DNA of 64,000 nt, from contig JABTTV010000001.1 in assembly GCA_015075725.1 (NCBI GenBank), positions 3,461,223-3,525,222 of the forward strand, in the 5' to 3' direction. This DNA comes from Anaerolineales bacterium (GTDB lineage Bacteria; Chloroflexota; Anaerolineae; Anaerolineales; Villigracilaceae). The position numbers were made by a program, and so were the translations under genes. Below the pieces are notes generated by a model. The model had not been told where the DNA came from. It did not search any database and saw nothing but the letters and a program-made list of their open reading frames with translations. Of this stretch, positions 22,336 to 61,771 are shown in pieces (within the stretch, counting starts at the first letter, position 1; each line of letters starts with the position of its first letter).

Positions 22336-22342
22336 GACACTC

Positions 22343-22609: not shown

Positions 22610-22631
22610 AAATATCTTCTCCTTTGAATTT

Positions 22632-23920: not shown

Positions 23921-23966
23921 GGGGTCATCTTATTCAATTGTGGAAGGGGGATGTGTGCCCGTGTCG

Positions 23967-27427: not shown

Positions 27428-27543
27428 TGGTTGCTCATGATATTGAAGAATTTGAAAGGGTATGGTGGATGTGTCGCTTTTGCCCATGATCGGAATTGGC
27501 GACAGAAGTTTTATACTTGATGAAATATTTGGTAAAATATCTT

Positions 27544-36776: not shown

Positions 36777-36849
36777 TATGCGCTATCTAAATTGTATAAA
36801 GTTATTAAATTGGCGCTGTACATGATATGTATTCACTTACACATTTTAT

Positions 36850-37437
36850 TTGAAGGATACGAATATGGTTAACAATGATTGGAAAAGGTGGCAGGAAAAT
36901 AAACTTCGGGAGCAAAGGATTGGAGAATGGACATCGCGATTTGAAAAAGCCGATGGGAATAGCCGGGAATGGCAAAATGTCTATCGCGCCTATTTGCAAT
37001 CTGATGTTTGGAAAGAAAAGCGCAGGCAGGTCTTGGATCGCGCAAATGGCAAATGTGAAAAGTGCGGGGTAATTTTGTTGGACCCCGACGTGCATCACCT
37101 GACCTATGACAGGGCGGGTGGGAATGAGCGGCTTGATGATTTAATGGTTCTCTGCTTTCCCTGTCATAGAAAGGCAGATAAACAAAGAGATAGAGAAACG
37201 GATGAACGGCGAACAGCCTCATATTATCAAGCAAGGCTGCATGGATTTGCGACCCGGATCTATGGTGATATGTGGTGGTATGAAAAGGACCACGAAGAAG
37301 TCGAAATAGAATTTATTAAATTCCTGTATAAAAAGTATTGTGAAGAATATGGGCTCGAATTTGATCCGCATCTCGACCCAGAAAGCAACATTGATTTCAT
37401 GGAGTTTTGGAATCAGGTTTTAAATGGGGGTGGGTAA
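36850..37437 (+). CDS. HNH endonuclease
   Basis: YLQSDVWKEKR...CEKC...VHHLTY...NERLDDLMVLCFPCH. Confidence 0.85.
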   Translation: MKDTNMVNNDWKRWQENKLREQRIGEWTSRFEKADGNSREWQNVYRAYLQSDVWKEKRRQVLDRANGKCEKCGVILLDPDVHHLTYDRAGGNERLDDLMVLCFPCHRKADKQRDRETDERRTASYYQARLHGFATRIYGDMWWYEKDHEEVEIEFIKFLYKKYCEEYGLEFDPHLDPESNIDFMEFWNQVLNGGG

Positions 37438-39890: not shown

Positions 39891-41093
39891 TTATTGTCCC
39901 GGCCAGCCGATCTGTCCCTGCCCTTCACGCACTGCCCAATAGATGATCCCGCCCCAATTCCAGGAACGCTGATATTGAGGATTGCTGATACTGCCGGCAT
40001 CATCCATGCGTCGCAGGGTTAGGCTGGTATCCCAATAGGCGTCTGGCGTACCATCATTGTTGATATCCGCCATTCTTGCCGCAGGTAGATTTGCCACGGC
40101 GGACGGGGGAATCTCGCCACCGCTTGAATGACTCTTCCATTCATAGCCTGTGATGCCCCGATGTCCGGTTCCGCCGCCGCAGTTGTAATTTCCGTTGCCA
40201 TTCGGACCGGCAAGACAGCCCTCGATGGCTTCATACTCCTGATAACGCAACTCCCAGAACAACTTGTACGGAGCGCGTCCGTTGCCAACGAACAGGGGCA
40301 TGTCCCCAGGCAGTTCATCCAGCCCACTGACACTCCCTGCGAGAGTGGTCGCTCCCACAGCCGGATGGGATGGTACTTCCCATTGAATGGTTTGGCTTGC
40401 GCCATTGGATAACATCAGGTCTCCAACTAGAGGCAGAGTCACAAACATGGGACCAGCAGGTCGCAAGGTCAGGATCAGGCGAAGATTTTGCCAGTCGCCC
40501 ACCTGTGGATGACTGGGCGATCCGCCGCCATTGGGAATATAGTTCACGCCACCTGATCCGGAGGATTCAGGCATACCGCCATTGCGGACAACGGTCGGCC
40601 AACGAACAAGAGTCGCAGGATATGGGCGCACATCCAGATAGATCTCGGGAAATGTGACACGCGCACTTACGTTCCAGCCGTTGTTGGCACAGGTGATACC
40701 GCCAGCCGTCACAGAGAACGATGTACAGGGATGTTGAGGCGGCGTGGTATTGGGCAGTTCACAAGGCATGACTGCCGGCTGCTCGATGATATGCAGAACC
40801 TGCCCGGTACAGTTATCCACCCGGATGGGAAACACCTTGCAGGAACTGCTTTCCGAATAATATTCAACGACTTGGAATGCTAGATGATTGCCGGGTGTGC
40901 AAGCGCCACCGCCATTGTTGTTATTGTTATTTCCACCGCCTTCCTCTCCGCCTCCTTCATTTCCTCCACCTGTGGTGCAAATGATGCTTCCATCCGGTTG
41001 AAAGGAACAGGATGGGGCAGACTGTGCTAGGACGGATAAAGGTTGAACGGAGATCAGGACGATCAGAAGAAGAAATAGACTCGCCCGTTTCAT
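39891..41093 (-). CDS. Secreted Cys/Gly-rich protein (pilus-associated adhesin candidate)
   Basis: Sec signal peptide, paired Cys and poly-G/N linker; end of the flp-tad operon (ATGA overlap). Confidence 0.65.
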   Translation of the reverse strand: MKRASLFLLLIVLISVQPLSVLAQSAPSCSFQPDGSIICTTGGGNEGGGEEGGGNNNNNNGGGACTPGNHLAFQVVEYYSESSSCKVFPIRVDNCTGQVLHIIEQPAVMPCELPNTTPPQHPCTSFSVTAGGITCANNGWNVSARVTFPEIYLDVRPYPATLVRWPTVVRNGGMPESSGSGGVNYIPNGGGSPSHPQVGDWQNLRLILTLRPAGPMFVTLPLVGDLMLSNGASQTIQWEVPSHPAVGATTLAGSVSGLDELPGDMPLFVGNGRAPYKLFWELRYQEYEAIEGCLAGPNGNGNYNCGGGTGHRGITGYEWKSHSSGGEIPPSAVANLPAARMADINNDGTPDAYWDTSLTLRRMDDAGSISNPQYQRSWNWGGIIYWAVREGQGQIGWPGQ

Positions 41094-42106
41094 GGTGCGG
41101 CTCCCGATAAGACGGAAAGGATGTACTGCTTTTCGTTTTCATCCGTGAAAGACTGCCAGTTTTCCGGCAGCGGTTGCATGTCAAGATGATAAGTGTTGCT
41201 CAGCCACTTCGCATCCCAGGGCTGGGAGTCGTATAGGGTTGCCACGGTTAGACGGTCGCTGGCATTTTCCTTTGCATCGGTGATTTCCAACTTGGGTTCC
41301 GTCTGTGTTCCCAGCCAGACCCACTGCCCATCACCCAGATACCCAAAGAGCAGAAACGAACGGATCGGCGTTGCGGTCGATGTGTATATGTGATCATTCA
41401 ACGCGTAGAGGATGTGCGTATTCTCGGCATCCTCCACCACCAGACAGATTACCGGATATTCACCGCCCCAAATCTCCACACGATTGCCTTTCACTGAGGA
41501 TGTCTCGAAACAGCCGCGCAGTCCATATGCTACTGCCGCTTTGCCATTGGCATTCAGACGCCATTCCTTGAAATCGGGATTGGGTGGGATGAAACTAACC
41601 GGCACATCCACAAGATCATTTGTATCCTTTGGAAGGGTGACGGTTTCCATCTGTCGCATGGGCATTTCGCTAAACCCAAGTAGTTCTGTGGCTTCAGCGC
41701 GACTATATCCTTCACGGATTGCTAGTGCCCATGCAATGGTTTTCTCCAAGCCTTGATATACACAAGCCGGCTGGATGATTTGGTAATTCTCGCTGATCAT
41801 GGTCGGCGTGAATGACCACTCCGATGAATCGGTTGGACAACCAAACGAATCAACACCTCCCGATGGGCTGGTCACAATGGTTTCCGTTGCCACCGGCTCC
41901 ACCGTCTGTGTCGGGAGGGTGACTGCTTCCGGAGTTGCTTGTACACGGCTCATCAACAGATACCGATTCAATCCTGCCATCCCTCCAGCCATAAAAAGCA
42001 GGAGCAGGATCAGCCCGGTGACAACGGTGTAAATGCGGGGTTGCCGTTTCCCGGCAAGGTCTTTATAGGTCAATCCATCCAGGATTGTTTTCCAAAGGGA
42101 TTTCAT
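41090..42106 (-). CDS. Membrane-anchored extracytoplasmic protein of the tad operon
   Basis: Single N-terminal TM and PT-rich linker. Confidence 0.65.
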   Translation of the reverse strand: MKSLWKTILDGLTYKDLAGKRQPRIYTVVTGLILLLLFMAGGMAGLNRYLLMSRVQATPEAVTLPTQTVEPVATETIVTSPSGGVDSFGCPTDSSEWSFTPTMISENYQIIQPACVYQGLEKTIAWALAIREGYSRAEATELLGFSEMPMRQMETVTLPKDTNDLVDVPVSFIPPNPDFKEWRLNANGKAAVAYGLRGCFETSSVKGNRVEIWGGEYPVICLVVEDAENTHILYALNDHIYTSTATPIRSFLLFGYLGDGQWVWLGTQTEPKLEITDAKENASDRLTVATLYDSQPWDAKWLSNTYHLDMQPLPENWQSFTDENEKQYILSVLSGAAP

Positions 42107-42121
42107 TCTTCTCCAAAAAAA

Positions 42122-42538
42122 TTATTGATCTTCGCGGGTCACGCCATGCGCCAGATATCCAATGGCGCGCACGGTCACCCAGCGTGCGGGGAACAAGTAC
42201 CCCGCCGATTGAACTTGCGCCGTGACATAACAGGCAGGGCGCCCTTGATGTCGTCCACAAGAGACCGAGGTAAGGTGCGCGGACCCCGGTCTCTGTGAAT
42301 TGAAGTAGGCAGCGGCAATCCCGTTGCCAGCAGTGGTGGCGGTGATGGTCCCATCCGGCAAGACTGCGATCTCCTGTGCGCCGGCATGAGCGGCAAGGTC
42401 GGCGGCAGCCACGGTCTCCATCACGCGCGCGTTGGTCACCATGTAATCGAGGATGCCTAACAGAAAGAGCGACATGATCGGCATCAGGATGGCGAACAAG
42501 GCAACAGATTGTCCGCGCTCTTTGAGTTTGATCTTCAT
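42122..42538 (-). CDS. TadG-like pseudopilin
   Basis: KERGQSVALFAILM prepilin motif and AAADLAAHAGA; start at 42538 by ATGA overlap. Confidence 0.7.
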   Translation of the reverse strand: MKIKLKERGQSVALFAILMPIMSLFLLGILDYMVTNARVMETVAAADLAAHAGAQEIAVLPDGTITATTAGNGIAAAYFNSQRPGSAHLTSVSCGRHQGRPACYVTAQVQSAGYLFPARWVTVRAIGYLAHGVTREDQ

Positions 42539-42963
42539 CGCCACTTTGCCTTCCAGGTCTCCGAGCGCGAGATGAACCACTCGCTGTTCCATCCGCTTTG
42601 ACTCAAACCAAGTAGCCCATCGAACAAGGTTGGTGCTTGAAACGAGACCAGACACTGACCCGGCTCTCCCGGCCCACTGGGGGGTGAGACCCGCACGCGA
42701 TATTGCACGCCTGCGGTGGCGGACCAATCCGCATTCAGGGTTTGCCAGGCGACATTCACCGCATTATTTCGGGCGCGTGCCGGATCCGGCGATTGTGACA
42801 GGAACTGTGAGCAGGCATACGCAGCGGCAGTCGCGGCAGTACGGGCGCGATGGGTCGGAATCCATGCCAACAAACCGAATGCCATAATGACTGCAAGCAT
42901 TGCGAATAAGGCAGTCTCTGCCAGTGCCTGTCCGCGTTCGCCCATTCGATGATGGGCCTTCAT
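42535..42963 (-). CDS. TadE-like pseudopilin
   Basis: GERGQALAETAL prepilin motif; start at 42963 by ATGA overlap. Confidence 0.7.
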   Translation of the reverse strand: MKAHHRMGERGQALAETALFAMLAVIMAFGLLAWIPTHRARTAATAAAYACSQFLSQSPDPARARNNAVNVAWQTLNADWSATAGVQYRVRVSPPSGPGEPGQCLVSFQAPTLFDGLLGLSQSGWNSEWFISRSETWKAKWR

Positions 42964-49534: not shown

Positions 49535-50983
49535 CTAATACCCTGCTGGCAATCTGCCGACCCAATCCTCTCCAATGCGAATCTCAATATCCACCGTTGA
49601 TGCAGGATCAGGCTGGATGATTACCTGTTGACTCCCCACCCCAAAGAGTTCCGTCAAATACCGCAGGGCATATAACTTTGAGGTGTACAGAATTATTTTG
49701 GTGGTGTTGGACGCATCAGTCGGTGGACCAAATTCCACCACCTGCATACCCTGGGTGGATAGAAAAGAGGCTGTGCTTTGCTCCAATCCGGCAGTATAAG
49801 TGTTATTGATAATCCTGATCCGCGCCTGATCAGATTGCATCAGCGCCATTGGATCACCTTGCGCCAATGGACTGAGAGGTCCGCCGGGAACGAAGATCTC
49901 ATCGCGCAGGATGCGAATGAGATCGGGGACCGGGCGCAGGACATTGGCAGGCACACCGTTGATGGTTGTATCCGCCGGGATCGCCATTGTGGTATCGATC
50001 ACGCCTCGCTTGATGTCCTCCACCCGAATGTCTTTCCCCAACACTGCCAGTTGGATCGCATCTTCCAACGACATGTTGGTGTGGATCCCAGAGGAAAATT
50101 CTGCATACAACTGCGGCGCCTGGGTAATCAAGGTGGCAAAGGTTTCCCCTTCCAGCACCTTGTCGCGGATCGCAAGGATGACCTGTTGTTGGCGTTTGGC
50201 GCGTCCCACGTCTCCGCCCGAACAGCCTTGTGATTCATGCCGGCAGCGTGCATACGCCAGGGCGCGCGGTCCGGTCAGGTGGCGGTAATCTCCCGGCTTC
50301 AACACAAAATGATCTGGTCCCTCGCCGAGCGGATCAAGCACCATGCGTTCCTCGACATACACATCGATGCCGCCAATCAGATTGATGAACGAAACAAAGG
50401 TCCCAAAATCCACCTGCACATAATAATGAATCGGAACCCCGATGAATTGCGAAACGGTCTGCATTGCCAAGGCAGGTCCGCCGCCCGGCAATTTGGCATT
50501 CTCGCCAATTGCCCAGGCGGTATTGATGCGACTGTATCCTGCACCGGGGATGTTGACCCACATATCACGCGGGATGGACAACATGCCCGCAGTTTTTGTG
50601 ACCGGATCCACAGTCAGAACCATGATCGTATCGGTGCAGGTCGGGCAACCTTCTCCGTGTCCATCGTCGCCGCGCAAGCCAAAGAAGGCGATGTTGATCC
50701 GACTGGCGCCGTCCCATTGAGGCAGCTCCATTTTCGGCGCGGATATTTCAATTGGAAGATCGTTTGCAGTTGCCGGATCGGGAGATGTCGGCAGATCGGA
50801 AGATGGTTGGTTTTGTAAAGTGCACTCTGCGGATGGCACACCTGGCAGGGCAGTCAGGGTCCAGCAGAGAGTCAGTTTGCGGACGATGAAAAACGCAGCA
50901 AGCATAGCCGCCGTAACAAAGATCCAATAGGCAAGCGAACGCCAAAAGGGATGATAAATATTCGGAGTTCGTGAACCTGGCAT
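49535..50983 (-). CDS. LCP (LytR-CpsA-Psr) family protein with LytR_C domain
   Basis: TDTIMV, SIPRDMWV, RINTA, ALAYARCR and DVGRAKRQQQV motifs. Confidence 0.9.
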   Translation of the reverse strand: MPGSRTPNIYHPFWRSLAYWIFVTAAMLAAFFIVRKLTLCWTLTALPGVPSAECTLQNQPSSDLPTSPDPATANDLPIEISAPKMELPQWDGASRINIAFFGLRGDDGHGEGCPTCTDTIMVLTVDPVTKTAGMLSIPRDMWVNIPGAGYSRINTAWAIGENAKLPGGGPALAMQTVSQFIGVPIHYYVQVDFGTFVSFINLIGGIDVYVEERMVLDPLGEGPDHFVLKPGDYRHLTGPRALAYARCRHESQGCSGGDVGRAKRQQQVILAIRDKVLEGETFATLITQAPQLYAEFSSGIHTNMSLEDAIQLAVLGKDIRVEDIKRGVIDTTMAIPADTTINGVPANVLRPVPDLIRILRDEIFVPGGPLSPLAQGDPMALMQSDQARIRIINNTYTAGLEQSTASFLSTQGMQVVEFGPPTDASNTTKIILYTSKLYALRYLTELFGVGSQQVIIQPDPASTVDIEIRIGEDWVGRLPAGY

Positions 50984-51864
50984 TACATCAACCCCGACCC
51001 CATGAACGGCGCGATGATCGCCAGCACCAGACCCAGCACCGCCATCACCCCGAATAAGCCGGCGCGCTGACGCACGAGAGCTGCACGTTCCTCAGTTGAT
51101 TCCACCACGGAACGGTGAACAGACTCCTGCAGCCCCTGCACGCTCGACAGGACTGGACGATTGTTGGCGAAGAAGTCATAGATGTCACGCAGGAATAGAT
51201 TCGCCTCCACATCCTTTGGATCTGGCAAATGAGCGCGGGTCACATCAATGGCTTTGGTGAAGTCCTCCACTTCCATGCGCGCAACAAGCAAACCAAGTAA
51301 ATTACAGAATGGTCCACCCACGGTCGAAGCGCGGCGCAGGGCTTCCTGCACCCCAACGCCGGAAGAAAGTAATGAACTCAATACAGAGAGACCGATCAAC
51401 ATGTTATTGCGCAGCGACTCGGCGCGTTTCTTTGCGAGTGTCTTCAGGCGCACATAGGGTCGGCGTAATCCCAGTAAGACGAAGATGCCGGCAATCACTG
51501 GCGCAACAGCGATGATGTTCATGGCGGCTAACGCTCCTGCCAACATCCCGCCCACCAGCAGAAAGGTCGAGAAATCGCGGATCGCCACGGCATAGAATTC
51601 ACCGGGGGTATCGTAGGGATAGCCAGCACGTCTCAAGAGGCTGATCACATCCCCCATGTTCTTCGCCTGATCCGGATCGAAGCGTCCCGGCAGGATAGCG
51701 ATCAATAACGCTTCCCATGTGGAACGGCGTTTGGTTTGGGGTTGTGAAGTGAAGTTGCTCAGGCGGTTCCCACCAAAGGTGCTGAAGGCATTCTGAAAAA
51801 CGTTCAGCAGTTCAAATGCGAGCACGCTCAAACTAAGCGCGCCGAGAAAGGCAAAAAAAGTCAT
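50983..51864 (-). CDS. tadC: TadC-like type II secretion F-domain protein
   Basis: LLRRAGYP, TMs and LLSSGVGVQEALRR T2SSF segment. Confidence 0.7.
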   Translation of the reverse strand: MTFFAFLGALSLSVLAFELLNVFQNAFSTFGGNRLSNFTSQPQTKRRSTWEALLIAILPGRFDPDQAKNMGDVISLLRRAGYPYDTPGEFYAVAIRDFSTFLLVGGMLAGALAAMNIIAVAPVIAGIFVLLGLRRPYVRLKTLAKKRAESLRNNMLIGLSVLSSLLSSGVGVQEALRRASTVGGPFCNLLGLLVARMEVEDFTKAIDVTRAHLPDPKDVEANLFLRDIYDFFANNRPVLSSVQGLQESVHRSVVESTEERAALVRQRAGLFGVMAVLGLVLAIIAPFMGSGLM

Positions 51865-52991
51865 CGAGGTTCTCCTTGTGAAATATCGAGACGGAAGTCT
51901 AATAACTTCTGCAAGGGGGTCTCCCCCGGCTGTCGCCCGCGAAACTTTTTGCTGTACAACCCACGGCGCAAGGCTTGCATGTGTTTTTCATCCCGGATAA
52001 CCTGATGAGGCGGACGCGGTTCGGCGAACTTCAAAGCGCCGCTGCCCGTCTCCCACTGTTCTCCGCCAAAATCTGCCGGCCAAAGCGGGTGGGTATACAT
52101 ATCCCACTCCTTGGACAAACGGTTATTCTTCTTTGCGCGATGCCATCCCCAAAAGGCTTCGAAGCGCGGACCCCATAGGCCCCAGACCAGGTCAAGTTGC
52201 AATGACTCATCCCGCAGCAAGTTCAAGGTTTCCGTGCAGTGATGGCAGATCGGGATGGCATTCTCCGGTCGCTGATACCGCCACAGAATTTCCACCGGGG
52301 CATTCGGGGCAGGGTTGAGGATCGGTCGCCAGGAAGCGGACTTGCCGCAGCGAATGCAGTGATTGGGAAATTCGTGTCGCCAGGGGATGCCAGCCACGGA
52401 CGCCGCCACGATCTCATCCAGATAGGGTTCCTCGGCTTTCAAGACGGAATACGATAACTTCACCGCGCCATCCGGCAGATGCCAGGCATGCGAAAGATCC
52501 AGGATGAACCCGGCAGAACTCACGATTTGCCCGCGTTCCCAGGCTTCGAATCTGCGCCGTTGGACCTCGGGACGAACCTCGCCGCGATGGGCATCGCGGA
52601 TGCGTCGGATGTCGGCAACCGCTTCTGCCAACAGTGCGAACAACAAACTGTCCATGCGCAGGCTCGGGTCGATTGAACCTTGTTGAGGCAGGTCCGGCGC
52701 AACGGATAAAACTGTTTGGAGATATGGGCGATAGTCCACCTTGGGGCCGGTCTCGATCACGTACTTACAAACGGGCAATTTCACCCAGCGCCATTTGGTG
52801 ATGACTTCATCGAATATCACCTGTCCATCTGCGGTGAGTGCAAGGATCCGCATGGGCGGGCAGAAGAAGGTGTGGAAGGTGCGCGTTCCATCTGTCGGAT
52901 AGATAAACGCCAGCACGGTATCGTTCAAAGACTCCATGAACATGGCGCCGGAGGCGCGTTGTTCGGAGGTGATCAGAAACTGTAATTGCAT
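51861..52991 (-). CDS. DUF192-like N-terminal domain fused to a CxxC...CxxC (HNH-like) domain
   Basis: RASGAMF...FHTFFCPPMRIL...YVIETG (DUF192-like); HCIRCGK...ENAIPICHHC. Likely start is MQLQF at 52991. Confidence 0.55.
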   Translation of the reverse strand: MQLQFLITSEQRASGAMFMESLNDTVLAFIYPTDGTRTFHTFFCPPMRILALTADGQVIFDEVITKWRWVKLPVCKYVIETGPKVDYRPYLQTVLSVAPDLPQQGSIDPSLRMDSLLFALLAEAVADIRRIRDAHRGEVRPEVQRRRFEAWERGQIVSSAGFILDLSHAWHLPDGAVKLSYSVLKAEEPYLDEIVAASVAGIPWRHEFPNHCIRCGKSASWRPILNPAPNAPVEILWRYQRPENAIPICHHCTETLNLLRDESLQLDLVWGLWGPRFEAFWGWHRAKKNNRLSKEWDMYTHPLWPADFGGEQWETGSGALKFAEPRPPHQVIRDEKHMQALRRGLYSKKFRGRQPGETPLQKLLDFRLDISQGEPR

Positions 52992-52992
52992 G

Positions 52993-54957
52993 TTATTCAC
53001 TGGCTCCTTCGCCAAAGAGGATTTCGCGCACAACGGGCAGCCTGGGGTTATTGGAACCCATTGCCTTCTTCCAGGCGTGCGCGAGTGGGTGTTCAATTTT
53101 CGCGGGCAGTTCATATGCCCGGGTGGGGGTGGAGTCGATCAAGGCCAGCAACTCTTCCGGTGGCAGGTCGGCAAATTGCCGGAAGACTCCGCGTGCTTCA
53201 CGCAGGGGATGTTCGCGCAAGCGGCTGATGGCATAGCCCAAGGGATCGGAAAGATTTCCACTTTGCGGGCTGGCAACGTACAGCACCCACGAGACAAAGG
53301 CATGCACAGAGGCCTGGATTTCGAGTAGTTCTTTTTGGACTTTGGGATGCACATCGTTTTGTGCAAGCAGGGTTTCGAGTTCCCAAAAATCAGGAGCGAC
53401 CGCCTCCGCCGCTTTCGCGCAGCGGCTTTGCGTGTGCTGGGTGGTGGAAGTGTTTTTCTTGTAGGTGTTTAAGGGGTGTTTAAAAGAGTTTAAATCACTC
53501 CCATTTGCGTCCACCATATGACTCCCATTTGCGTCTGCTAATACTCCCATTTGCGTCCAGCTAATACTCCCATCTGCGTCTGCCATATGACTCCCATTTG
53601 CGTCCACCTTATTACTCCCATCTGCGTCCAGCGGTTCGTCCAGCAACACCCGAAAGGCGCGCGGCATCGACTCCACGCGCAGGTCGGCGTAGGTCTTTGA
53701 ATCGGGCAGATCGATTTCTTGCAGAAAGCGGGAGAGGTTGCCCCCGCGTTGTTGCGAAGTCCAATGCAGATGGAGCCAGGCTTGTACGGTTTTGTAGCGG
53801 TTGGAACCGATCAGTTCTGCCATCTCCTGATATCCATGCTTGAAGGTCACCACATCCCGCCGCTCGCCAGTGCGGGCATTGATGAACGCCATATCGCGCG
53901 CGACCGTGATCAACCAGGCCTGCGCGGGCGTCAGGTTATAGCGGTGGATGGTCTCTGTGATGAAGTAATGTGGGATGTGAATGTCACCCAGGCAGTTGAT
54001 GATCCTGCGATGCAGTTCCTGCGCGAGACGCTCGATTTCAGGTGAAAAGTTTTCACCTGTTTCCAAACGCGCCATATCCATCACCGTGTTCACACTTGCA
54101 CCTGGCGCAAGTGCAGGTGTGGGTGCATGAGGCAGTTTCATATCCAGCGGAGTAAGCAGATCCATGACATCCTCCACGGCGAGCAGCTCCTGCAGGGCAT
54201 TGGAGACGGAGTTATGTTTTTCGATCCATGCTTTCAACCGCAGATGAACCGCAATGGCGTCGGCGCGTGTCAGGCGCGGAGTCATGAAGACCTGATAGCG
54301 GATCGGTGCGCGATGAGGGCGTCCGTCCCGTCCACGCCGGAAACGGCGTGCATCCTGTGGATCCACGCGCTGAACCAACCCATTCAACTGATCCTGGATG
54401 CCGGCATGTTTCAACAACCGCCAGAAGGCGCCATTGCTCAGTGCGCTGAAACGCATCACCTCGCGGCTGTGCAATGGTTTTCCAGATGTCTGGTGCTGAT
54501 CCTGCACCCGCCATGCTGTTTGATGAAATCCAACATACAACCAGACCGCCTTGGGTCCGATCTCCATTCCCAGTCTTCGCAAGTAGCCCTTCACCACGAC
54601 CTGCTTGTGCGGCTGGACGATGCGGTCATAATCCAGCCATTGCACCGGCTCAATGTTCAATTCAGGTTCGTCCGTTTCCTCCGCTTCTGTTTCCATTTCT
54701 TCCTGCGACTCATCACCGACAACGAACTTCACAGAGACGGAACGATTCAGAATGCCAACCAGCAATCGCTGCACCGTGCTGGTCAGGCGGGACTCCAGCC
54801 AGTCACGGGCATAGGCATTGCGCGTGGAAACAAGCAGTACATCGTTTTCCAATCCCAACGCAACCGTGCCCAGCACCCAGGTTTCGAAGGAGGCGCGCGG
54901 CATGTCCATCTGTAGTTGAGTCAACACGGAACTCCAGGCTTGTTGAAGATCGCTCAT
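52993..54957 (-). CDS. Replication initiator with DnaA N-terminal-like domain and internal iterons
   Basis: N-terminus QAWSSVLTQLQ...SFETWV...NAYARDWLESR resembles DnaA domain I. It carries an internal direct-repeat array and lies next to ParA. Confidence 0.7.
   Translation of the reverse strand: MSDLQQAWSSVLTQLQMDMPRASFETWVLGTVALGLENDVLLVSTRNAYARDWLESRLTSTVQRLLVGILNRSVSVKFVVGDESQEEMETEAEETDEPELNIEPVQWLDYDRIVQPHKQVVVKGYLRRLGMEIGPKAVWLYVGFHQTAWRVQDQHQTSGKPLHSREVMRFSALSNGAFWRLLKHAGIQDQLNGLVQRVDPQDARRFRRGRDGRPHRAPIRYQVFMTPRLTRADAIAVHLRLKAWIEKHNSVSNALQELLAVEDVMDLLTPLDMKLPHAPTPALAPGASVNTVMDMARLETGENFSPEIERLAQELHRRIINCLGDIHIPHYFITETIHRYNLTPAQAWLITVARDMAFINARTGERRDVVTFKHGYQEMAELIGSNRYKTVQAWLHLHWTSQQRGGNLSRFLQEIDLPDSKTYADLRVESMPRAFRVLLDEPLDADGSNKVDANGSHMADADGSISWTQMGVLADANGSHMVDANGSDLNSFKHPLNTYKKNTSTTQHTQSRCAKAAEAVAPDFWELETLLAQNDVHPKVQKELLEIQASVHAFVSWVLYVASPQSGNLSDPLGYAISRLREHPLREARGVFRQFADLPPEELLALIDSTPTRAYELPAKIEHPLAHAWKKAMGSNNPRLPVVREILFGEGASE
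53497..53632. repeat. Six direct repeats ACTCCCATYTGCGTC (iteron array / oriV)
   Basis: Copies start at 53497, 53521, 53543, 53566, 53590 and 53614 (spacing 24, 22, 23, 24, 24); an AT-rich stretch TTTAAAAGAGTTTAAAT is adjacent. Confidence 0.85.
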
Positions 54958-55181
54958 GCATAACCTCCTCGCAAAACAAGCCTGTTTTTTTTCACAGGTC
55001 TCACAGACCGTTCGCGCAGGATTTCTTTCGCCTCAGCCCTTCCTGTGCGTTCAACGTAGGCGGCAACGCAGGCGGATGCGTGGGCGGAACGTGGACAGGG
55101 CGCAGGCGGCACGTTGTCTCTGCCGCCCACGTTCTTCATCTCATTCCATTGATAAAGTAATTTTTGGCGGAACGTCATCAT
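54954..55181 (-). CDS. Small hypothetical protein
   Basis: 75 aa; stop overlaps the Rep start and start overlaps the upstream stop. Confidence 0.5.
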   Translation of the reverse strand: MMTFRQKLLYQWNEMKNVGGRDNVPPAPCPRSAHASACVAAYVERTGRAEAKEILRERSVRPVKKNRLVLRGGYA

Positions 55182-55786
55182 TTGCCTTTGTGCGCTAAAG
55201 TAAATGTGGTGGATTTCGGTTTGGGTTCAAGCACCAGCAATCCGGTTTCATACGCTTTCAGACCAAAGCGTAGCAGAGCCGTGATCAATTCCCCAATGGG
55301 TACATGCAAGCCATCATCGGAGGCAAGCGCTGCCAGTTCCTGTTTGAGTTCAGGAGAGAAGCCGCGCCAGGTGGTGATGACCCGCCACAAGGCTTCCGGT
55401 CGTTTATGTTTGGCAGTACGTTGAGGTCTGTTGATCGAATGTGCGGAGTCGCTTCGTGGGAAGAGGGTCATGCGCATGCGTTCCGGATTGGGACGCGGGT
55501 GGAGATCATAATCACCGCGTTCATAGGACCGCAGCGCGTATTCGAGCACCGCACATGCCACCTCTCCTGCGGGGACTTGTAGATCATCCGCAATTGCCTT
55601 CACCTTCAATGCCAGTTTGGGATCGATGCCGCGATAGACCACCTTGCGGCTCTGTTGCTGTTTTTCCCACTGGCGGCTGCGTTTGCGCGGCGCTGCCACA
55701 CGCAGGGAGTCATAGAGGCTGGGTGGTTGAACAGGGATGGGCGTTTCGGTCTTGTCAAAAGGGTCGCGTCGTCCGGTCATATCCAT
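55178..55786 (-). CDS. Tandem ribbon-helix-helix-like protein (ParA partner candidate)
   Basis: Two similar units: VVYRGIDPKL...VPAGEVACAVLEYALRSYERG and TTWRGFSPEL...VPIGELITALLRFGLKAYETG. Confidence 0.6.
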   Translation of the reverse strand: MDMTGRRDPFDKTETPIPVQPPSLYDSLRVAAPRKRSRQWEKQQQSRKVVYRGIDPKLALKVKAIADDLQVPAGEVACAVLEYALRSYERGDYDLHPRPNPERMRMTLFPRSDSAHSINRPQRTAKHKRPEALWRVITTWRGFSPELKQELAALASDDGLHVPIGELITALLRFGLKAYETGLLVLEPKPKSTTFTLAHKGK

Positions 55787-55789
55787 CTC

Positions 55790-56560
55790 CTAAAATTTCA
55801 GCACGTGCTGGGTCAATGTTTGATATTCCTTGGCAGCCCGGCACACAGGATCAAACTCAAAAATGGTTTTTCCCTCGGCGGCGCATTCCCGTAACAACGT
55901 GGAGCGATGGATGGGTGGCAGAACACTTGCATCAAACCGTTCCTTCAGGTTTTCCATCGTGGCTTTGCTCTCGCGGGTTTGTTCATCAAAGAAGGTCGGC
56001 AGGATGCCCAATAGATTTCCGCGCCAGTTTTTCTTTTCCTGAAGCACGCTCATCATGAGCAGCACCTTCGAGACGCCGTCGGCGGAAAGGAACTCGGTGG
56101 CAGTCGGCACGATCACGAGGTCGGAGGCCCAGACCGCGCGTTCCTGGATGCCGCCGACACTGGGCGCGGTGTCGAAGAGTATGTAGTGGAGTCCGTCCTT
56201 GAAGAAGCGCTGGATCGATTGGCGAATGGCGGAGATGGGTTTGTCCTGCGCGTTGAGCACGGTCTGGGCAGCCATCGTCTGTTGGTTGCCGGGCAGGAGG
56301 TATAGTCCTTCCCGACCGGAGAAACGCACCCATGACTGCACAAAGGTGGTCTCCTGCGGTGTGCTTCCCATTGTGAGCAGATAAAACGCGCCGGGTTCGG
56401 GGTTGAGTCCCTGTGCCGTGGCGGATTGACCTTGTGGGTCAAGATCGATCAGTAATACGCGCCGGCCTTTTTGAGACAGGCAGTGGGCGAGGGATACGGC
56501 AGTCGTGGTCTTGCCGACCCCGCCTTTTTGATTGGCAATACAGATGACTTTGGTGGACAT
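55790..56560 (-). CDS. parA: ParA/Soj family ATPase
   Basis: NQKGGVGKTT, IDLDPQG and FDTAPS motifs. Confidence 0.95.
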   Translation of the reverse strand: MSTKVICIANQKGGVGKTTTAVSLAHCLSQKGRRVLLIDLDPQGQSATAQGLNPEPGAFYLLTMGSTPQETTFVQSWVRFSGREGLYLLPGNQQTMAAQTVLNAQDKPISAIRQSIQRFFKDGLHYILFDTAPSVGGIQERAVWASDLVIVPTATEFLSADGVSKVLLMMSVLQEKKNWRGNLLGILPTFFDEQTRESKATMENLKERFDASVLPPIHRSTLLRECAAEGKTIFEFDPVCRAAKEYQTLTQHVLKF

Positions 56561-56611
56561 GATATGTTCCTATTTTTGAAAACGATGAAGATGGATCAGG
56601 CTCTGAGGGGA

Positions 56612-56695
56612 TCAGAACAAAAGAAAGAAAACGATCACCCCGATAAGGATGCTTCCGCCAAATATGGCGAGTCCGACGAAAATTCCTGTGAACAT
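56612..56695 (-). CDS. Possible 27-aa single-TM peptide
   Basis: MFTGIFVGLAIFGGSILIGVIVFFLLF; ATG 1 nt after the upstream TGA. Confidence 0.35.
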   Translation of the reverse strand: MFTGIFVGLAIFGGSILIGVIVFFLLF

Positions 56696-56696
56696 C

Positions 56697-56900
56697 TCAG
56701 GACTCGCTTTCTGTCTGTTCGGCGGAACCCGATTCAGTCTGTGGTGATTGGTGTTCTCCGGACATCGATTCGGATACAGGTGGGGATGCTGTTTTATTTT
56801 TACGATCCCTTCGCCAGCCAAGGATCATGCGATATACATGCCCCAGATTGCGGCGTTGTTCGGCGGTCAGTTCGATTTCCTGGGTGGGCTGTTCTAACAT
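56697..56900 (-). CDS. Small hypothetical protein
   Basis: 67 aa; start overlaps the upstream stop. Confidence 0.55.
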   Translation of the reverse strand: MLEQPTQEIELTAEQRRNLGHVYRMILGWRRDRKNKTASPPVSESMSGEHQSPQTESGSAEQTESES

Positions 56901-57103
56901 GCTGCACCCCTGTCATCGGTTTCGGCAGATAACTCGGTTTGTTTGTCTCCGCCTGCCAGTTGTCCCTCGATCAGTCCAAGACGCTTGAGTTCATTTCTGA
57001 TGATCAATGCTGCCTGTGACTTCACGGGTCGATATTCCTGTTGGGCTAATTGATTGAGTGCGTTCATTTCTGGTTCGAGAAGGTATATGACAACTCTGGC
57101 CAT
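56894..57103 (-). CDS. Small RHH-like DNA-binding protein, first gene of the backbone operon
   Basis: MARVVIYLLEPEMNALNQLAQQEYRPVKSQAALIIRNEL; CGAGG RBS. Confidence 0.6.
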   Translation of the reverse strand: MARVVIYLLEPEMNALNQLAQQEYRPVKSQAALIIRNELKRLGLIEGQLAGGDKQTELSAETDDRGAAC

Positions 57104-57126
57104 GTTCAACCTCGCTTGGGTTAAGA

Positions 57127-57155
57127 TAAAAGAGCCACGTACAGCGGCTCTTTTA
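57127..57155. terminator. Terminator-like hairpin upstream of the backbone operon
   Basis: TAAAAGAGCC-N9-GGCTCTTTTA. Confidence 0.5.
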
Positions 57156-57712
57156 CACGGCGGGAGTCAATTAATTCCCCATTATGAGTCACAGGAATTC
57201 TACGGAAATTCCGGCGGCATTATTTGATGGGTATTCTCGATACTCATGTAGCCCCTGAGAGTATTTTTGGAAAATGTAGTGGAGTGAATTAAAGATGAGT
57301 CTTATATGGGCGGGTTGGATATGATTGAATATCATCGTCTCTTTTCCTGAATATCCATCTGATGCGTACAATCAGGATAAAGAACAACACTATTCCAATC
57401 ACAATGGGGAAAAGGAAGAATACAATGCCCACGAGGAGACCGATAAATAATGAATTCATTTTTTACCCGTTAGGTATGATACTGGGTCAAAAAAACACTA
57501 CGTTAAGTACCATTTCATGCAGTATGAATTGAAATCGGGATGGTAAACGCCTCTATCGTTAGTGTAATGGACCCCATTTGCGTGAAAAATAATTGTATTT
57601 CAAAAAGATTAATGCCAAGTAGAAACCGCCATAGACGCAAATCACATAAATCCTATGCTAAATGTAATGTTTTTTAGGCGTTGTTATCAACTTGGATTTA
57701 CAGATCTCGTTG

Positions 57713-57749
57713 AAAAAAAATAAAAGCCGCATGAGCAGCGGCTTTTATT
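57713..57749 (-). terminator. Intrinsic terminator of 57771-58403
   Basis: AATAAAAGCCGC-N7-GCGGCTTTTATT followed by a T-run on the minus strand. Confidence 0.75.
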
Positions 57750-57770
57750 GGGGATTACTCTCTCTTGATT

Positions 57771-58403
57771 TTATGTTCCAGTTTCCTGTTGTAGGGCAGC
57801 GTTTTTGCGAAGTTCCTCAAATACCTTTTTTCGATTCTCGTAGAAACTGTTCTCAGACATGCAGGGAGTACCGTCAGCATACGTACCAAATTCCTGGGAA
57901 AGGAATTCGGTCAAGGTCATGGGGTTTCGGAATGGATCGCGATTTTCCCAGGCTAATACGACCCGCATCCAGCGATCAAGCGAGTGGGTGGGAGGTCTGC
58001 CGCGCCGTTTCCGTCTATCCATGCTTGCCAGCATTTGGGTTGTGTTTGAAATCCCTGATTCGAGCAGGCTCGTCTGAGGTTGAACTTCCTCATATCCCAG
58101 CAACGAAAGGAAATATCCGGTCTTTCTGATGGATCGGTGAATTTGCCAAAGGTCGATTCTGCGATGTCGAATGAAACGGTCCAGGCTCCAGCCGGCGCGC
58201 ATTCCAACCATTATTAACGCCAGGATAAGAATGGACATGAGTGCTGCCGCAACTTCGGCGAGTTCCTCCCCAAATCTTGTTTGAATTCGATGGAAGACCC
58301 AGAGGATCGAACCAAACAATAATCCACCGAATATGGACAAAATCAAATACAGCACCATCCGTAATTTAGGATGAATATGACTACGTTTGGTGTATTTAGA
58401 CAT
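57771..58403 (-). CDS. Membrane protein with basic C-terminal putative DNA-binding domain
   Basis: Two N-terminal TMs, RRKRRGRPP and a helical C-terminus; divergent from the Xis-like gene. Confidence 0.6.
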   Translation of the reverse strand: MSKYTKRSHIHPKLRMVLYLILSIFGGLLFGSILWVFHRIQTRFGEELAEVAAALMSILILALIMVGMRAGWSLDRFIRHRRIDLWQIHRSIRKTGYFLSLLGYEEVQPQTSLLESGISNTTQMLASMDRRKRRGRPPTHSLDRWMRVVLAWENRDPFRNPMTLTEFLSQEFGTYADGTPCMSENSFYENRKKVFEELRKNAALQQETGT

Positions 58404-58579
58404 AAGGCTAAAATTTTAATTGAGAAGCCCGAAAAAATGAATGTGAAAAAACTTACAATCACCTAACTACGAATTCATGAAATTCCCCAAGCCAATGGCC
58501 GTCGTATCGAATACATACTCCTTGCGACAAGCAAACTTACTGCCATCCAAGTTATAATTAATTTTGGGAGAATTGTTTT

Positions 58580-58795
58580 ATGGACGATTGGTTGACTACC
58601 TATGATGCTGCGCGTGTAAGCGGCTATAACCCGGATTACATCCGTCAATTGATTCGATCTAACAAAGTGGTGGGGCGAAAGTGGGGACCGTCATGGCAGG
58701 TCAGCCGGCGTTCCCTGGAAACTTATATAAAGCATGCAGAGAAACTGGGGGAACGTCGCGGAGCAAAGCCAAAGCCTGGTTCAAAAAGACGATAA
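58580..58795 (+). CDS. HTH_17/excisionase-like protein (RDF candidate)
   Basis: WLTTYDAARVSGYNPDYIRQLIRSNKV...KWGPSWQVSR. Confidence 0.85.
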   Translation: MDDWLTTYDAARVSGYNPDYIRQLIRSNKVVGRKWGPSWQVSRRSLETYIKHAEKLGERRGAKPKPGSKRR

Positions 58796-58815
58796 ATCGA
58801 TGGGGCGGGGGATTA

Positions 58816-58867
58816 TTGACTTTTGATTTCTGTGTAGTATAATTATCGTATCAGTACGATAATTATA
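58816..58867 (+). promoter_or_regulatory. Sigma70 promoter for the integrase region, overlapped by a 13-4-13 perfect palindrome
   Basis: TTGACT-N16-TATAAT (58816-58843); TATAATTATCGTA-TCAG-TACGATAATTATA (58838-58867). Confidence 0.7.
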
Positions 58868-58982
58868 TCTGTTGAAACGGGCCGTGAATGTGGTGGAACA
58901 CACGCACGACCCTGACCCAACCCACCGATAGAAGCGGAGGGACGGGCTGACTTCATTATATCAGCCCAGTTTTCACGCCCTG

Positions 58983-59297
58983 GTGGGATTCACCGGGGCG
59001 ATTTCTTTTCTGACCGGGCAGAATGAGGTCGCTCCAATAATCAAAAGGAGCCATCTGATGCTAAACATGAATCCAAGTCCACGAACAAAAGCTATTTCGA
59101 TCCTTTCCAAATTCCGCCAGGAGTGGCAGGAGGCAGCAAGCGGAAAGAGCCTGTTGGAGGTTGAAGGAAATATCGGCATGGTATTAGCCGATCTTGTGAA
59201 TTCCTTTGAACTTGCCTCCCATGAACAATCCCTTGTGTTGGGACCACAGCTCTTTGAGGAAATGCGGGAAATCCTTTACCAGCCGTCCCGCAACTAA
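58983..59297 (+). CDS. Hypothetical protein upstream of the integrase
   Basis: Helical ORF; true start may be MLNMNP at about 59057. Confidence 0.55.
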   Translation: MGFTGAISFLTGQNEVAPIIKRSHLMLNMNPSPRTKAISILSKFRQEWQEAASGKSLLEVEGNIGMVLADLVNSFELASHEQSLVLGPQLFEEMREILYQPSRN

Positions 59298-59373
59298 GCG
59301 ACAGCCAGCCCGGTCTGGCACTGCTAATCCTATACCATTCCCCCAAAAATAATATTACCCCTGAAGGAAGATT

Positions 59374-61074
59374 ATGAATACAATTAAACGTGCTGTACTA
59401 TATGCAAGAGTTTCCAGCGATGACCGCGGCAAGGAAGGACGTAATCTGGCAGGACAATTGGAAATGTGCCGGGATTTTGCACTCGACAATGGATGGCAAG
59501 TCATTGCAGAATTAGCCGAGGATGATCGTGGTGCATCCGGCGCTTCATTTGAATTACCTGAACTTAATCACGCACGTGATATGGCGCAAAAAGGGGAGTT
59601 TGATGTATTGGTGGTTCGCGAGATTGACCGCCTCAGTCGTAAGCTTGCGAAGCAACTTATCGTTGAAGAACAATTGAACCGGGCCGGTGTCGAAGTTGTT
59701 TATGTACTTGCCAGTTACGAGAACTCGCCGGAAGGGCGTTTGAACAAACATATTCGTGCGACTATCGCTGAATACGAACGTGAGAAAATTGCCGAGCGCA
59801 TGGTGCGCGGAAGGCGGCAGGTGGTCAAAAACGGGAAGATTATGCTTCACGGAAATAAGCCCCCATTTGGTTATCGCTTATCAGAGGATGGAAAAAATTT
59901 GGTAATTCATGAAGAGGAGGCAGCAGTCGTACGAATGGTTTACAGGTTTTATGTTGAGGGCGACGAACGTGGAAAACGTCTGTCTGCACGTGATATTGCC
60001 AAAAGATTGACCGCAATGAAAGTTCCCACCTGGGCGGATATTCGCGGGATGTTCAAAAAGCGCGGAAAAGGAGAATGGTCCGGGAGGTTGGTCATGCGGA
60101 TTTTGGGTTCAGAAACATATGCAGGCCATTGGCATTACGGAAAGCGAAACACTTTCGGAGGTTACCACCCGAACAACGCCCGTGAATGGTGGCTGTCCTT
60201 TGATGTACCGGCGATTGTCTCTGAGGAAACATGGAAACGCGCACAAATTCAACGAAAGTTGAACACCAGTGAATCACTTCGCCATATAAAGAGAGAGTAT
60301 TTACTTCGGAGTCGGGTTAGGTGTGGTTTGTGCAAAAGCAGTGTCAATTGCTATGCTACTCGACCAACTGGTAAGGAGCTTCGATATTATCTTTACTATC
60401 GTTGTAATGGTTATATGGGGAACATTGCCAATGTCGAGTGCAACCTTCCGAGTTTTCGAGTCGATATTGTTGACCCATTGGTTTGGAACTGGGTAAAAGA
60501 TCTCCTCACGAAACCCGGGGTGTTGGAGCATGGACTTGCTGAGTATCAGGAAGGAAGAGAGCAGTTCTGCGCTCCGATTCGCGATCGCTTGATTGTTTTG
60601 GAGGATCTATGGCAGGGTTCAAAATCTCAACTGGATCGTGTTCTCGATCTATATATATCTGGACAGGTTCAAAGGGAGTTGCTGATTGATAAAAAACAAC
60701 AATTGGAATCGACCCTTGCAGCTTTTGAGAAGGAACGTGATGAATTGAATTTGAACCTGGAATCGGAAGCTTTAACAGATAATGAGATTCGTCAAATTGT
60801 GGAATTCGCTGCTCAGATTGCAGAGGGGTTGGAGCCGGGCGACGAATCGTTTGAAGATCGCAGGAGAATTATTGAACTGTTGGATGTGAGAGCATCTTTT
60901 ATAGTGGAAGACAATCAAAAATATGTAGATGTATGGTGTTTCTTGGGTAGAAACAAGTTATCGATTGGGGACCCTACTTCTCGAAATGCGGAACGCGCCA
61001 ATGATCGTCGGTGCTGTAGCGAGAGAAGCCGCCGCCGACCACATCGTACATCCCGCCGCGCGCCATGGTTTTGA
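59374..61074 (+). CDS. Large serine recombinase (integrase)
   Basis: YARVSS catalytic Ser, IDRLSR, recombinase domain PFGY, Zn ribbon CGLC...C...C and coiled coil. Confidence 0.95.
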
Positions 61075-61771
61075 GACAGTGTTCGATGAGTTTGAGATAT
61101 TCATCCTGTTTGCGCGCAATCGCATGATGAAGTAAAAATTCGAGCGCCATGGGCTGGGGGAATTTCGGCGCGTCACCCCAACCGCCCGTGCCCCAGTAAT
61201 ACGCCGCCTGAATGGCTTTTGCGATGGCGTCGAGATGTTCTGACGTCAGTCGTTCATCCCCGTCGAGTTTTACTTGAGAATGTAGATGCTGATAGACCTT
61301 GACGCCGGTATCTTCTATTTCATTGCGTTGATTTTCCCAGGCATTTGCAAGCCCTTCCAGCACCTCCCGAAATGATGGCATGTTGTATCTGCGGGTCGGC
61401 GGGAAGTACGTGCCTGCGTAAAACGGCTTGAGGTCCGGCGTCAGGAACACGGACATGGGCCAGCCGCCCGAGCCAGTCATTGCAATGGTCGCCTGCATGT
61501 AGATGTTGTCGAGGTCGGGGCGCTCCTCGCGGTCCACTTTGATGTTGACGAAATGCTCGTTCATGAACGCCGCGGTTTCGGGGTTTTCGAATGACTCATG
61601 TGCCATGACGTGACACCAGTGACATGCGGCGTACCCTATGGATAGAAAGATCGGTTTGTTTTCGATTTTGGCTTTATTCAATGCTTCATCCCCCCAGGGA
61701 AGCCAATTCACCGGGTTTTCTGCATGCTGGAGAAGGTAGGGGGAGGTTGCAGTTGCAAGACGGTTGGACAT
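60974..61771 (-). pseudogene. yyaL: 5' part (265 aa) of a yyaL/DUF255 thioredoxin-domain (SPATA20-like) gene, truncated by the ICE
   Basis: [19 protein letters not shown] and KVDREERPD motifs. It ends at HWRVPHFEK*, whereas the family continues (HFEKMLYDN...) to roughly 680 aa. Confidence 0.85.

Follow-up and report, generated by a model that had tools for sequence, protein, structure and literature searches.

A putative replication origin inside the gene of a DnaA domain I initiator-like protein in an integrated element of Anaerolineales

The DNA analysed here, which we call the window, is a stretch of 64,000 nucleotides from an Anaerolineales bacterium (Chloroflexota; assembly GCA_015075725.1, contig JABTTV010000001.1, positions 3,461,223 to 3,525,222). 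It contains an integrated mobile element bounded on its right side by a recombinase and, within this element, a gene (rep) for an initiator-like protein (Rep). Six short direct repeats lie inside rep and are followed, in the direction of the gene, by an AT-rich tract and a conserved box. An initial annotation of the window had taken the repeats for iterons of an origin serving theta replication of an excised integrative and conjugative element, an interpretation that the comparative analysis described here partly supports. The features on which the argument is built are the following (window coordinates; aa, amino acids; pLDDT, predicted local distance difference test).

52993..54957, minus strand: rep, 654 aa, with DnaA domain I, a helical body bearing a helix-turn-helix (HTH), a disordered linker and a C-terminal helical domain
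54760..54942, minus strand: DnaA domain I (aa 6-66), Pfam PF11638, E 4.9e-9
53770..53835, minus strand: candidate HTH (aa ~375-396, GYQEMAELIGSNRYKTVQAWL), model helices 375-382 and 388-395
53404..53625, minus strand: predicted disordered linker (aa 445-518), pLDDT ~30, no secondary structure in the model
53497..53628: candidate iteron array, gene-strand unit GACGCARATGGGAGT, 15-bp direct repeats in six copies, gene-strand spacing 24, 24, 23, 22, 24
53455..53496: AT-rich tract, candidate DNA-unwinding element, gene strand GATTTAAACTCTTTTAAACACCCCTTAAACACCTACAAGAAA, with AAAC phased at 10-11 nt, directly after the array
53438..53454: conserved box, gene strand AACACTTCCACCACCCA, after the AT-rich tract
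53383..53637: DNA-constraint block, codons 441-525, the sole stretch of rep with suppressed synonymous change

The initiator-like protein and the repeats within its gene

The only part of Rep recognised by Pfam is the N terminus (DnaA_N); neither Pfam nor NCBIfam detected the other DnaA domains, namely the AAA+ domain (III) and the domain that binds DnaA boxes (IV). A structural comparison with Foldseek matched this N terminus to domain I of Bacillus subtilis DnaA (4tps) with template modelling scores of 0.87-0.90, a root-mean-square deviation of 1.1-1.2 and 33% identity, and a profile search against PDB sequences also led to DnaA (E 7e-19). In DnaA this domain contacts the helicase or its loading partners. 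The match of Rep in PHROGs was weak and confined to the DnaA_N part.

For the remainder of the protein we relied on an AlphaFold2 model built from an alignment of 91 diverse relatives (mean pLDDT 82.4); an earlier model from 24 close sequences had a pLDDT of 46 and was usable just at aa 1-80 and ~230-320. Only two long segments of the better model fall below a pLDDT of 50, namely aa 445-518 and an acidic stretch at aa 84-96 (the last three residues are also low). The array, the AT-rich tract and the box are all encoded within the first of these, a linker of predicted disorder between the large N-terminal body and the C-terminal helical domain. The candidate HTH in the body is likely to be the sequence-specific DNA-binding element of Rep. 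Weak matches to HTH_23, Sigma70_r4_2, HTH_28 and YdaS recur among members of the Rep family (without given positions in the proteins), a weak NCBIfam sigma-70 match covers aa 343-378 of Rep, just upstream of the candidate HTH, and a GGxxxLAxWxGxxxKxxxxWL motif is kept across the Rep subfamilies.

On the plus strand, six exact copies of ACTCCCATYTGCGTC start at 53497, 53521, 53543, 53566, 53590 and 53614, spaced 24, 22, 23, 24 and 24 nt apart, and Tandem Repeats Finder delimits the array at 53497-53630 (period 24, 5.7 copies). When up to two mismatches are allowed, these six remain the only occurrences in the whole window (chance expectation 0.32; none of the shuffled sequences reached six). 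Read along the gene, the copies of GACGCARATGGGAGT fall in frames 0, 0, 0, 2, 0 and 0. The five in-frame copies encode DA(N/D)GS and copy 4 (53543-53557) encodes TQMGV; the frame is regained through the 23+22 spacing pair, and the translation of the Rep open reading frame (ORF) includes DADGSISWTQMGVLADANGS. The GC content drops from 0.56 for the whole gene to 0.37 in the 60-nt bin 53440-53499, and the 50-nt window of lowest GC in rep (0.30) begins precisely where the array ends. The initial annotation had thus correctly described the number and spacing of the copies, the displaced copy with its restored frame, the adjoining AT-rich tract and the location inside a rep gene, given that the ORF is initiator-like and carries DnaA domain I. 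It had also placed the start of the array correctly, and the end that it gave (53632) lies an immaterial 4 nt past the last copy.

A promoter scan revealed no promoter-like site in or near the array. The DNA of the AT-rich tract is near-invariant among relatives, and so is the box AACACTTCCACCACCCA in 37 related genes, including its four-fold degenerate third positions. A terminator-like hairpin (AGCGGC...GTCGCT followed by a run of T, 53395-53413, minus strand) is located inside rep at the downstream edge of the constrained block. The lambda origin (ori-lambda) has an inverted repeat beyond its AT tract.

Selection on the DNA of the array

A way to separate constraint on the DNA from constraint on the protein is to compare synonymous and amino-acid changes along the gene. 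The codon alignment comprised 43 full-length rep genes, of which 37, all below 95% nucleotide identity to one another, were used. The fraction of identical codons at pairs sharing the same amino acid (15-codon windows) is 0.76-0.88 in codons 441-525 vs 0.41-0.69 elsewhere. In the array (aa 444-490), 0.327 of the four-fold sites and 0.29 of the amino acids differ, and in the AT-rich tract plus box (aa 491-512) the values are 0.244 and 0.32, compared with 0.479 and 0.30 for the rest of the gene. The 69-codon window starting at aa 444 has a four-fold score of 0.300, the minimum among 449 windows outside being 0.430. Since synonymous change is reduced while amino-acid change is average, selection on the peptide is ruled out as the cause of the block. 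Recent recombination was considered as a cause of the low divergence and rejected, as it would reduce the amino-acid divergence too and that of the block is not reduced.

The same picture emerges from the single positions of the motif. Positions 1, 3, 5, 10 and 11 are invariant in 210 of 210 copies (35 genomes with six copies each) and position 9 in 208, positions 3 and 9 being synonymous third positions in the five in-frame copies. Where the motif does vary, the variants co-vary across all six copies of an element, the out-of-frame copy 4 included. For example, in two loci (L057 and L027) the in-frame copies contain GACGCG, a silent change in an alanine codon, and copy 4 also has the G, by which its peptide TQM becomes TRM. 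In another (L046) the in-frame copies are GACGCCAATGGCGGG (DANGG) and copy 4 has the same DNA, read as TPMAG. Likewise, where GGG has silently become GGA or GGC in the in-frame copies, copy 4 reads ME and not MG. Overall, copy 4 agrees with the in-frame majority of its own genome at 0.731 of the variable positions vs 0.615 in shuffled data, a value that none of 5000 shuffles reached, in a comparison that ignores shared ancestry. The architecture of the array is kept down to 53% protein identity, and the DA(N/D)GS peptide is conserved among close relatives.

These alignments show that the DNA of the array is selected independently of the peptide that it encodes, and we regard it as nearly certain that the array is a functional cis-acting DNA element. 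The claim of the initial annotation that the DNA motif is conserved regardless of its translation is upheld by the suppression of synonymous change, by the co-varying copy 4 and by the two or three reading frames used in more distant relatives (see below). A check for orthologues that keep the peptide but not the nucleotides found the opposite.

A few irregular copies were seen among the 66 related loci, which come from representative genomes of species, almost all belonging to the Anaerolineales or to other Chloroflexota. In one (L053) exactly one 24-nt unit has been lost and the frame is kept. Two others are apparently decayed: in L051 (gene 10001-11809) the ORF stops after an array cut to two copies, and in L034 it stops at aa 172. 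Twelve of the 66 loci (L017, L023, L026, L037, L040, L042, L044, L048, L050, L058, L061 and L062) end inside rep at or near the array (aa 401-508). In the metagenomic run X1 the conserved core of the element is split into many small contigs, and 53404-54091 is uncovered by the listed contigs. It seems that the most conserved DNA of a multi-copy element breaks short-read assemblies at the array block.

Distant relatives keep the layout with different motifs

In all relatives of Rep at 27-43% identity, some short peptide repeat occupies the corresponding position, and the segment after it is rich in residues with AT-rich codons (L, N, K and F). We compared the DNA of eight of them (L067-L074, about 30-40% identity), chosen for their long contigs. 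All eight have 5-7 repeats at about two-thirds of rep, each with its own motif and with a spacing of 21-23 bp (once 43).

L067: GGAAAAAGTGAGACTCG, 6 copies, exactly 22 bp
L068: GATGGCGCAAATGGCAC, 6 copies, 22-23 bp
L069: TGGCGCGATTTTCAG, 7 copies, 23/22 bp alternating
L070: GAAAAAATGAGACTC, 7 copies, 21-22 bp
L071: GACAAAGTGAGACTC, 7 copies, 21-22 bp
L072: GGACAAAGTGAGCAAC, 7 copies, 21-22 bp
L073: GGACAAAGTGAGCAAT, 6 copies, 22 bp
L074: AAAAAGTGAGACTC, 5 matched copies, 22 bp, one 43 where a degenerate copy is skipped

Because of the 21-23 bp spacing the copies fall into two or three frames and give unrelated peptides; those of L067 are read in all three (EKVRL, GKSET and KSRDS). Plasmid iterons are usually spaced in this way, about 22 bp being equal to two helical turns. 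The subfamily of the window is unusual in this respect, its spacing having moved to 24, 24, 23, 22 and 24, with five of the six copies sharing one frame. The sequence that follows the array is AT-rich in all nine genes (the window and the eight relatives), and in eight of them no 50-nt window of the gene has a lower GC content than that at the end of the array. Several of the distant relatives also have phased A-rich repeats (period 10-12) in the AT-rich tract, and a CCACC-like box is found 45-68 nt past the array in 9/9. Changes of the repeat motif go along with the Rep lineage and with the HTH sequence, a correspondence that is confounded by shared ancestry.

Comparison with known replicons

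A known case of an origin located inside the gene of its own initiator is the O gene of phage lambda, where ori-lambda occupies the middle of the gene and consists of iterons (four in lambda, six in Stx phages) with an AT-rich unwound tract on one side (PMC7466680). The window is similar in having an array beside an AT-rich tract within the initiator gene, and the comparison with lambdoid O drawn in the initial annotation is apt as a precedent for such an arrangement. It does not extend to homology, for Rep shows none with lambda O in sequence or fold (Pfam, NCBIfam, PHROGs, PDB and BFVD), its only recognisable part being DnaA domain I. Furthermore, the lambda iterons are inverted repeats themselves whereas the repeats of the window are plain direct repeats, and lambda O recruits the helicase through P, whereas Rep carries DnaA domain I at its own N terminus. 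Unlike a lambdoid phage, the host element is an integrated island, bounded by a serine recombinase and equipped with partition genes.

The closest match in logic, with regard to the position of the array in a disordered linker, is Rep of pSK41, considered together with the RepA_N plasmids of Gram-positive bacteria. The four Rep boxes of pSK41 are central in rep and the central domain encoded there is only a linker that can be deleted in frame, flanked by an N-terminal DNA-binding domain and a C-terminal domain for host interaction (PMC5703833). No Pfam match to the RepA_N domain was obtained for the window Rep or for 24 diverse members of its family. In contrast to pSK41 Rep, the protein is twice as long, the host belongs to the Chloroflexota, the element is integrated, and the DNA-binding part appears to be the HTH-containing body that follows DnaA domain I.

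Direct repeats of ~22 bp, an AT-rich element and par genes nearby are also found in iteron plasmids (F RepE, R6K pi, RK2 TrfA, pSC101 RepA, P1 RepA). In these, the coding sequence of rep does not contain the iterons, and the origin usually includes boxes for the host DnaA; the array of the window, by contrast, is inside rep, has no DnaA box near it, and belongs to an initiator that itself carries DnaA domain I. This group of plasmids has been reviewed (PMC4980987). Compared with chromosomal DnaA, Rep has a homologous domain I, lacks recognisable domains III and IV, and is encoded in a multi-copy mobile element.

Among integrated elements, the SXT/R391 integrative and conjugative elements and SGI1 have their own replication and an active partition for the excised circle (PMC4489591, PMC7826253). 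The element in the window resembles them in having candidate replication and partition genes of its own. SXT replicates by a relaxase-driven rolling circle from its origin of transfer (oriT). The ssrA islands of Dehalococcoides are a different module.

A candidate origin and its alternatives

We favor the view that the array is an iteron origin bound by the protein in whose gene it lies, with a probability that we put at roughly 0.68. These repeats, with the AT-rich tract and CCACC box after them, would constitute the vegetative replication origin of an integrated Anaerolineae mobile element. By analogy with lambda O at ori-lambda and with pSK41 Rep, Rep would bind the six repeats via its HTH-containing body, and the spacing of 22-24 bp, about two helical turns, would place the Rep molecules approximately on the same side of the helix. 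The complex so formed would strain and open the adjacent AT-rich tract, DnaA domain I would recruit the replicative helicase of the host or the partners that load it, and the ParA system encoded upstream would segregate the free copies of the element. An origin would be tolerated inside rep because it is located in the segment coding for a disordered linker, whose peptide would be largely a by-product of the DNA. Unlike the rolling-circle replication of SXT, the layout points to an iteron origin of the theta type.

Several results weigh against a Rep-bound origin. Foldseek searches of the whole Rep model against PDB and BFVD, together with the PDB profile search, retrieved DnaA domain I only, and the body and the C-terminal domain match no solved initiator fold. 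DnaA boxes are absent from the vicinity of the array and not enriched in the 64-kb window, and the GC skew does not switch at the array, although skew tells little about an element whose replication is mostly passive. The statistic for the tracking of copy 4 takes no account of shared ancestry, and gene conversion in short tracts among the repeats might add to the similarity within an element. The core of the element (50-56.6 kb, from LytR to ParA) has 3-6-fold the contig word depth of the flanking cargo or chromosome in X4 and X5, two sludge/wastewater metagenomes, but in such contig-level data this reflects many related elements in the community and not replication. Finally, no full-length homologue of Rep was found among plasmid and phage records (PLSDB, INPHARED), and thus no free replicon with this initiator is documented.

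The alternative that competes most directly with an origin retains the binding by Rep. The array would then serve only for copy-number control, autoregulation or handcuffing, as in incA of P1, a control array of this kind, with the true origin elsewhere in the element. Iteron arrays outside origins are known, other short repeats occur upstream of rep, and with a single cluster of the motif in the window an origin and a control array look the same. We nevertheless consider this unlikely, as AT-rich sequence (the GC minimum of the gene in eight of nine cases) and a box come directly after the array in every subfamily, which is the layout of an origin, and the window has no second array of the motif to act as one. 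A role as the centromere for partition, with the adaptor of the ParA system encoded upstream as its binding protein, is more improbable still. Phased direct repeats near par genes often are centromeres, and ParA and a small ORF sit ~1.5-3 kb upstream of the array. However, the related motifs GAAAAAGTGAGACTC, GAAAAAATGAGACTC, GACAAAGTGAGACTC and AAAAAGTGAGACTC occur with both ParA-type (L067, L071) and ParM-like (L070, L074) systems. Since related motifs persist across this swap, the repeat follows the Rep lineage and not the type of partition. In L067 and L069, separate arrays are present in the interval from the par genes to rep, and an AT-rich GC minimum is no feature of a centromere.

The other two explanations do without binding of a protein to duplex DNA at the repeats, and both seem to us very improbable, the one concerning the peptide slightly more so. 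It holds that the repeats matter as DA(N/D)GS, perhaps as a metal-binding or interaction module, and that their DNA is similar by recent duplication. In the subfamily of the window five of the six copies are indeed in frame, forming a regular eight-residue repeat that close relatives conserve and that presumably resembles calcium loops of the DxDxDG type. Yet the synonymous sites are more conserved than elsewhere at a merely average amino-acid divergence, the out-of-frame copy retains the DNA motif, and in the distant relatives the 21-23 bp spacing leads to two or three frames and unrelated peptides. The segment is, in addition, predicted to be disordered, and the equivalent peptide of pSK41 is dispensable (PMC5703833), so that we regard this explanation as largely refuted already. 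If the constraint acted on the mRNA or on DNA in single-stranded form (as a structured RNA, the target of a small RNA, the hairpin of a rolling-circle origin, or an oriT), it would leave the same trace in synonymous sites, which alone cannot separate DNA from RNA, and the hairpin at 53395-53413 is in its favor. Against it, the 261-nt block taken as a single strand folds no better than shuffled sequence (z = +1.3), Rfam has no RNA family in or near the array, the strict ~22-nt spacing suits the repeat of the DNA helix and not an RNA fold, and neither a relaxase nor a rolling-circle Rep domain was recognised in the protein by Pfam or NCBIfam.

The par-rep module and the rest of the element

Upstream of rep and toward the right end of the element the following features were identified.

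55790..56560, minus strand: ParA-type partition ATPase gene, the first of the par-rep module (Pfam AAA_31, CbiA, ParA), upstream of rep in 51 loci
55178..55786, minus strand: 202-aa ORF flanked by parA and rep, which may encode a partition adaptor or a regulator, conserved in 56 loci
55044..55175: intergenic short repeats upstream of rep, with GGCGGAACGT three times, CAACG(T/C)AGGCGG twice and a 9-bp inverted repeat CGTGGGCGG/CCGCCCACG
59374..61074, plus strand: gene of a large serine recombinase bounding the element on the right (Pfam Resolvase, Recombinase, Zn_ribbon_recom), homologues in 41 related loci

The 66 related loci share the gene order serine recombinase, 210-aa ORF, ParA, 202-aa ORF, Rep, 417-aa ORF, TadC-like and LytR, and several genomes hold two or three copies of the element. 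The 202-aa ORF has no Pfam or NCBIfam match, and PHROGs and NCBIfam gave no informative match for the neighbouring unknown ORFs. Downstream of rep in the window are, accordingly, a 417-aa ORF, a TadC-like gene and a LytR-family gene. The first of these (51861-53114, minus strand, found in 48 related loci) is Cys-rich with several CxxC pairs and matches no family; as listed it overlaps the 3' end of rep by 122 nt, and its true start is probably further downstream.

Partition genes are upstream of rep in all nine loci compared at the DNA level. In seven of the eight distant relatives the partition ATPase gene and one or two small ORFs precede rep, and in L074 the par genes, likewise upstream, are separated from rep by a few kb that contain an unknown ORF and a gene for a tyrosine integrase. 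The ATPase is of the ParA type in L067, L068, L069 and L071, and a ParM-like actin (ALP_N) takes its place in L070, L072, L073 and L074. Partition cassettes have been exchanged while the initiator and the type of repeat stayed related. Period-11 arrays, separate from the intragenic one, lie between the small ORFs of the par genes and rep in L067 (1727-1788) and L069 (5872-5934). Together with the intergenic repeats of the window, they are better candidates for a centromere or operator than the intragenic array. A gene for a single-stranded DNA-binding protein is directly downstream of rep in L067 and L068.

The right end was located with contigs from other metagenomes. One of them (X2) follows the window from 56495 to 61102 and then continues into unrelated sequence, the stop of the recombinase being at 61074. 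In X5 the contig stops at 60988, and one form in X4 lacks 61068-61398. The probable right end of the element is therefore at 61068-61102, overlapping a DUF255 gene (60974-61771). The same DUF255 thioredoxin-like gene beside the recombinase in L012 and L043 suggests a common insertion site.

The cargo includes a metal-transporting P-type ATPase, a two-component system, a pPIWI_RE island, BrxD, TerB, AddAB-like genes and a family-B DNA polymerase. Much of this forms a stack of defence-type genes on the minus strand (875-18961), with the three-gene set of a pPIWI_RE island at 875-5492, genes for a DEAD-box helicase, BrxD and a TerB-domain protein at 7045-12470, and an AddAB-like helicase-nuclease pair at 12642-18961. 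The polymerase (726 aa) is beside an HNH endonuclease gene (34596-37437, GC ~0.40-0.46) and has homologues in four related loci, e.g., L057. Tad-like or secretion-type genes are scattered over 20209-27487, 39891-42727 and 50983-51864, among them a prepilin peptidase (27032-27487), a TadE-like gene (42122-42727) and the TadC-like gene (50983-51864); an M23 peptidase (20209-20910) and a DnaB_C/RecA-like ATPase (23111-23920) are also encoded. Several large ORFs (589, 400, 338 and 331 aa) have no family match. Among the window ORFs scanned, Pfam and NCBIfam recognised neither a relaxase nor a VirB4 or coupling protein. Relatives gave weak matches to AAA_10/DUF87 (VirB4-like, L073), FtsK_SpoIIIE (L074) and T2SSE (L071), and Tad-like genes and an M23 peptidase are also found near rep in distant relatives. 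The Tad-like and secretion-type genes may represent an unrecognised transfer apparatus.

Size and significance of the Rep family

Rep has more than 562 close homologues. An exhaustive search among cluster representatives at 50% identity gave 2703 clusters at E<=1e-3, a number that falls to 629 at E<=1e-10 and to 128 at E<=1e-30. With a profile search at E<=1e-10, 1489 proteins were retrieved, each standing for one cluster at 90% identity. Curated families cover nothing beyond the N-terminal domain of Rep, NCBIfam being without a model, and in the full-text literature we found precedents for the principle and no description of the family. The principle of an origin inside its initiator gene is already known from lambda O and pSK41 Rep; what is new is the Rep family, the strength of the comparative evidence and the conserved layout. 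Rep would follow the same logic in an unrelated and very large family of initiators of integrated elements in Chloroflexota.

How far the arrangement can be generalised is a separate matter. We would give even odds to the proposition that the whole large family consists of DnaA domain I fused to a DNA-binding body of its own, with an origin (iterons, unwinding tract and CCACC box) in the segment coding for the linker, a spacing of ~22 bp and a peptide that is mostly a frame-dependent read-out. In the subfamily of the window, with five of six repeats in a 24-bp in-frame register, the passenger peptide could be starting to serve the protein.

If this generalisation holds, each gene would contain its own pair of initiator and iterons, which would provide hundreds of natural specificity pairs and ready minimal replicons. 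The repeats, the AT-rich minimum and the CCACC box delimit a minimal origin that can be tested, and the module made up of parA, the small ORF and rep, the last with the candidate origin inside it, is a candidate self-contained replicon for vectors of Anaerolineae. To our knowledge, Chloroflexota lack established genetic tools. The array is also an unusually clear comparative case of a coding repeat selected as DNA, and the linker repeat peptides of such genes should not be annotated as protein repeats.

The nearest plasmid match, a protein with a related N terminus, was found on a free replicon, the circular 212-kb plasmid of the Anaerolineae strain Leptolinea sp. HRD-7 (L075, AP024711.1, 196974-197861). 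This DnaA_N protein of 295 aa, whose gene has no internal array, is 45.6% identical to Rep over the first 80 aa. An AAA_22 ATPase gene and an ORF of 108 aa precede the gene, which has a 27-nt repeat (2.2 copies) just upstream, and its product may be a shorter cousin of the Rep family.

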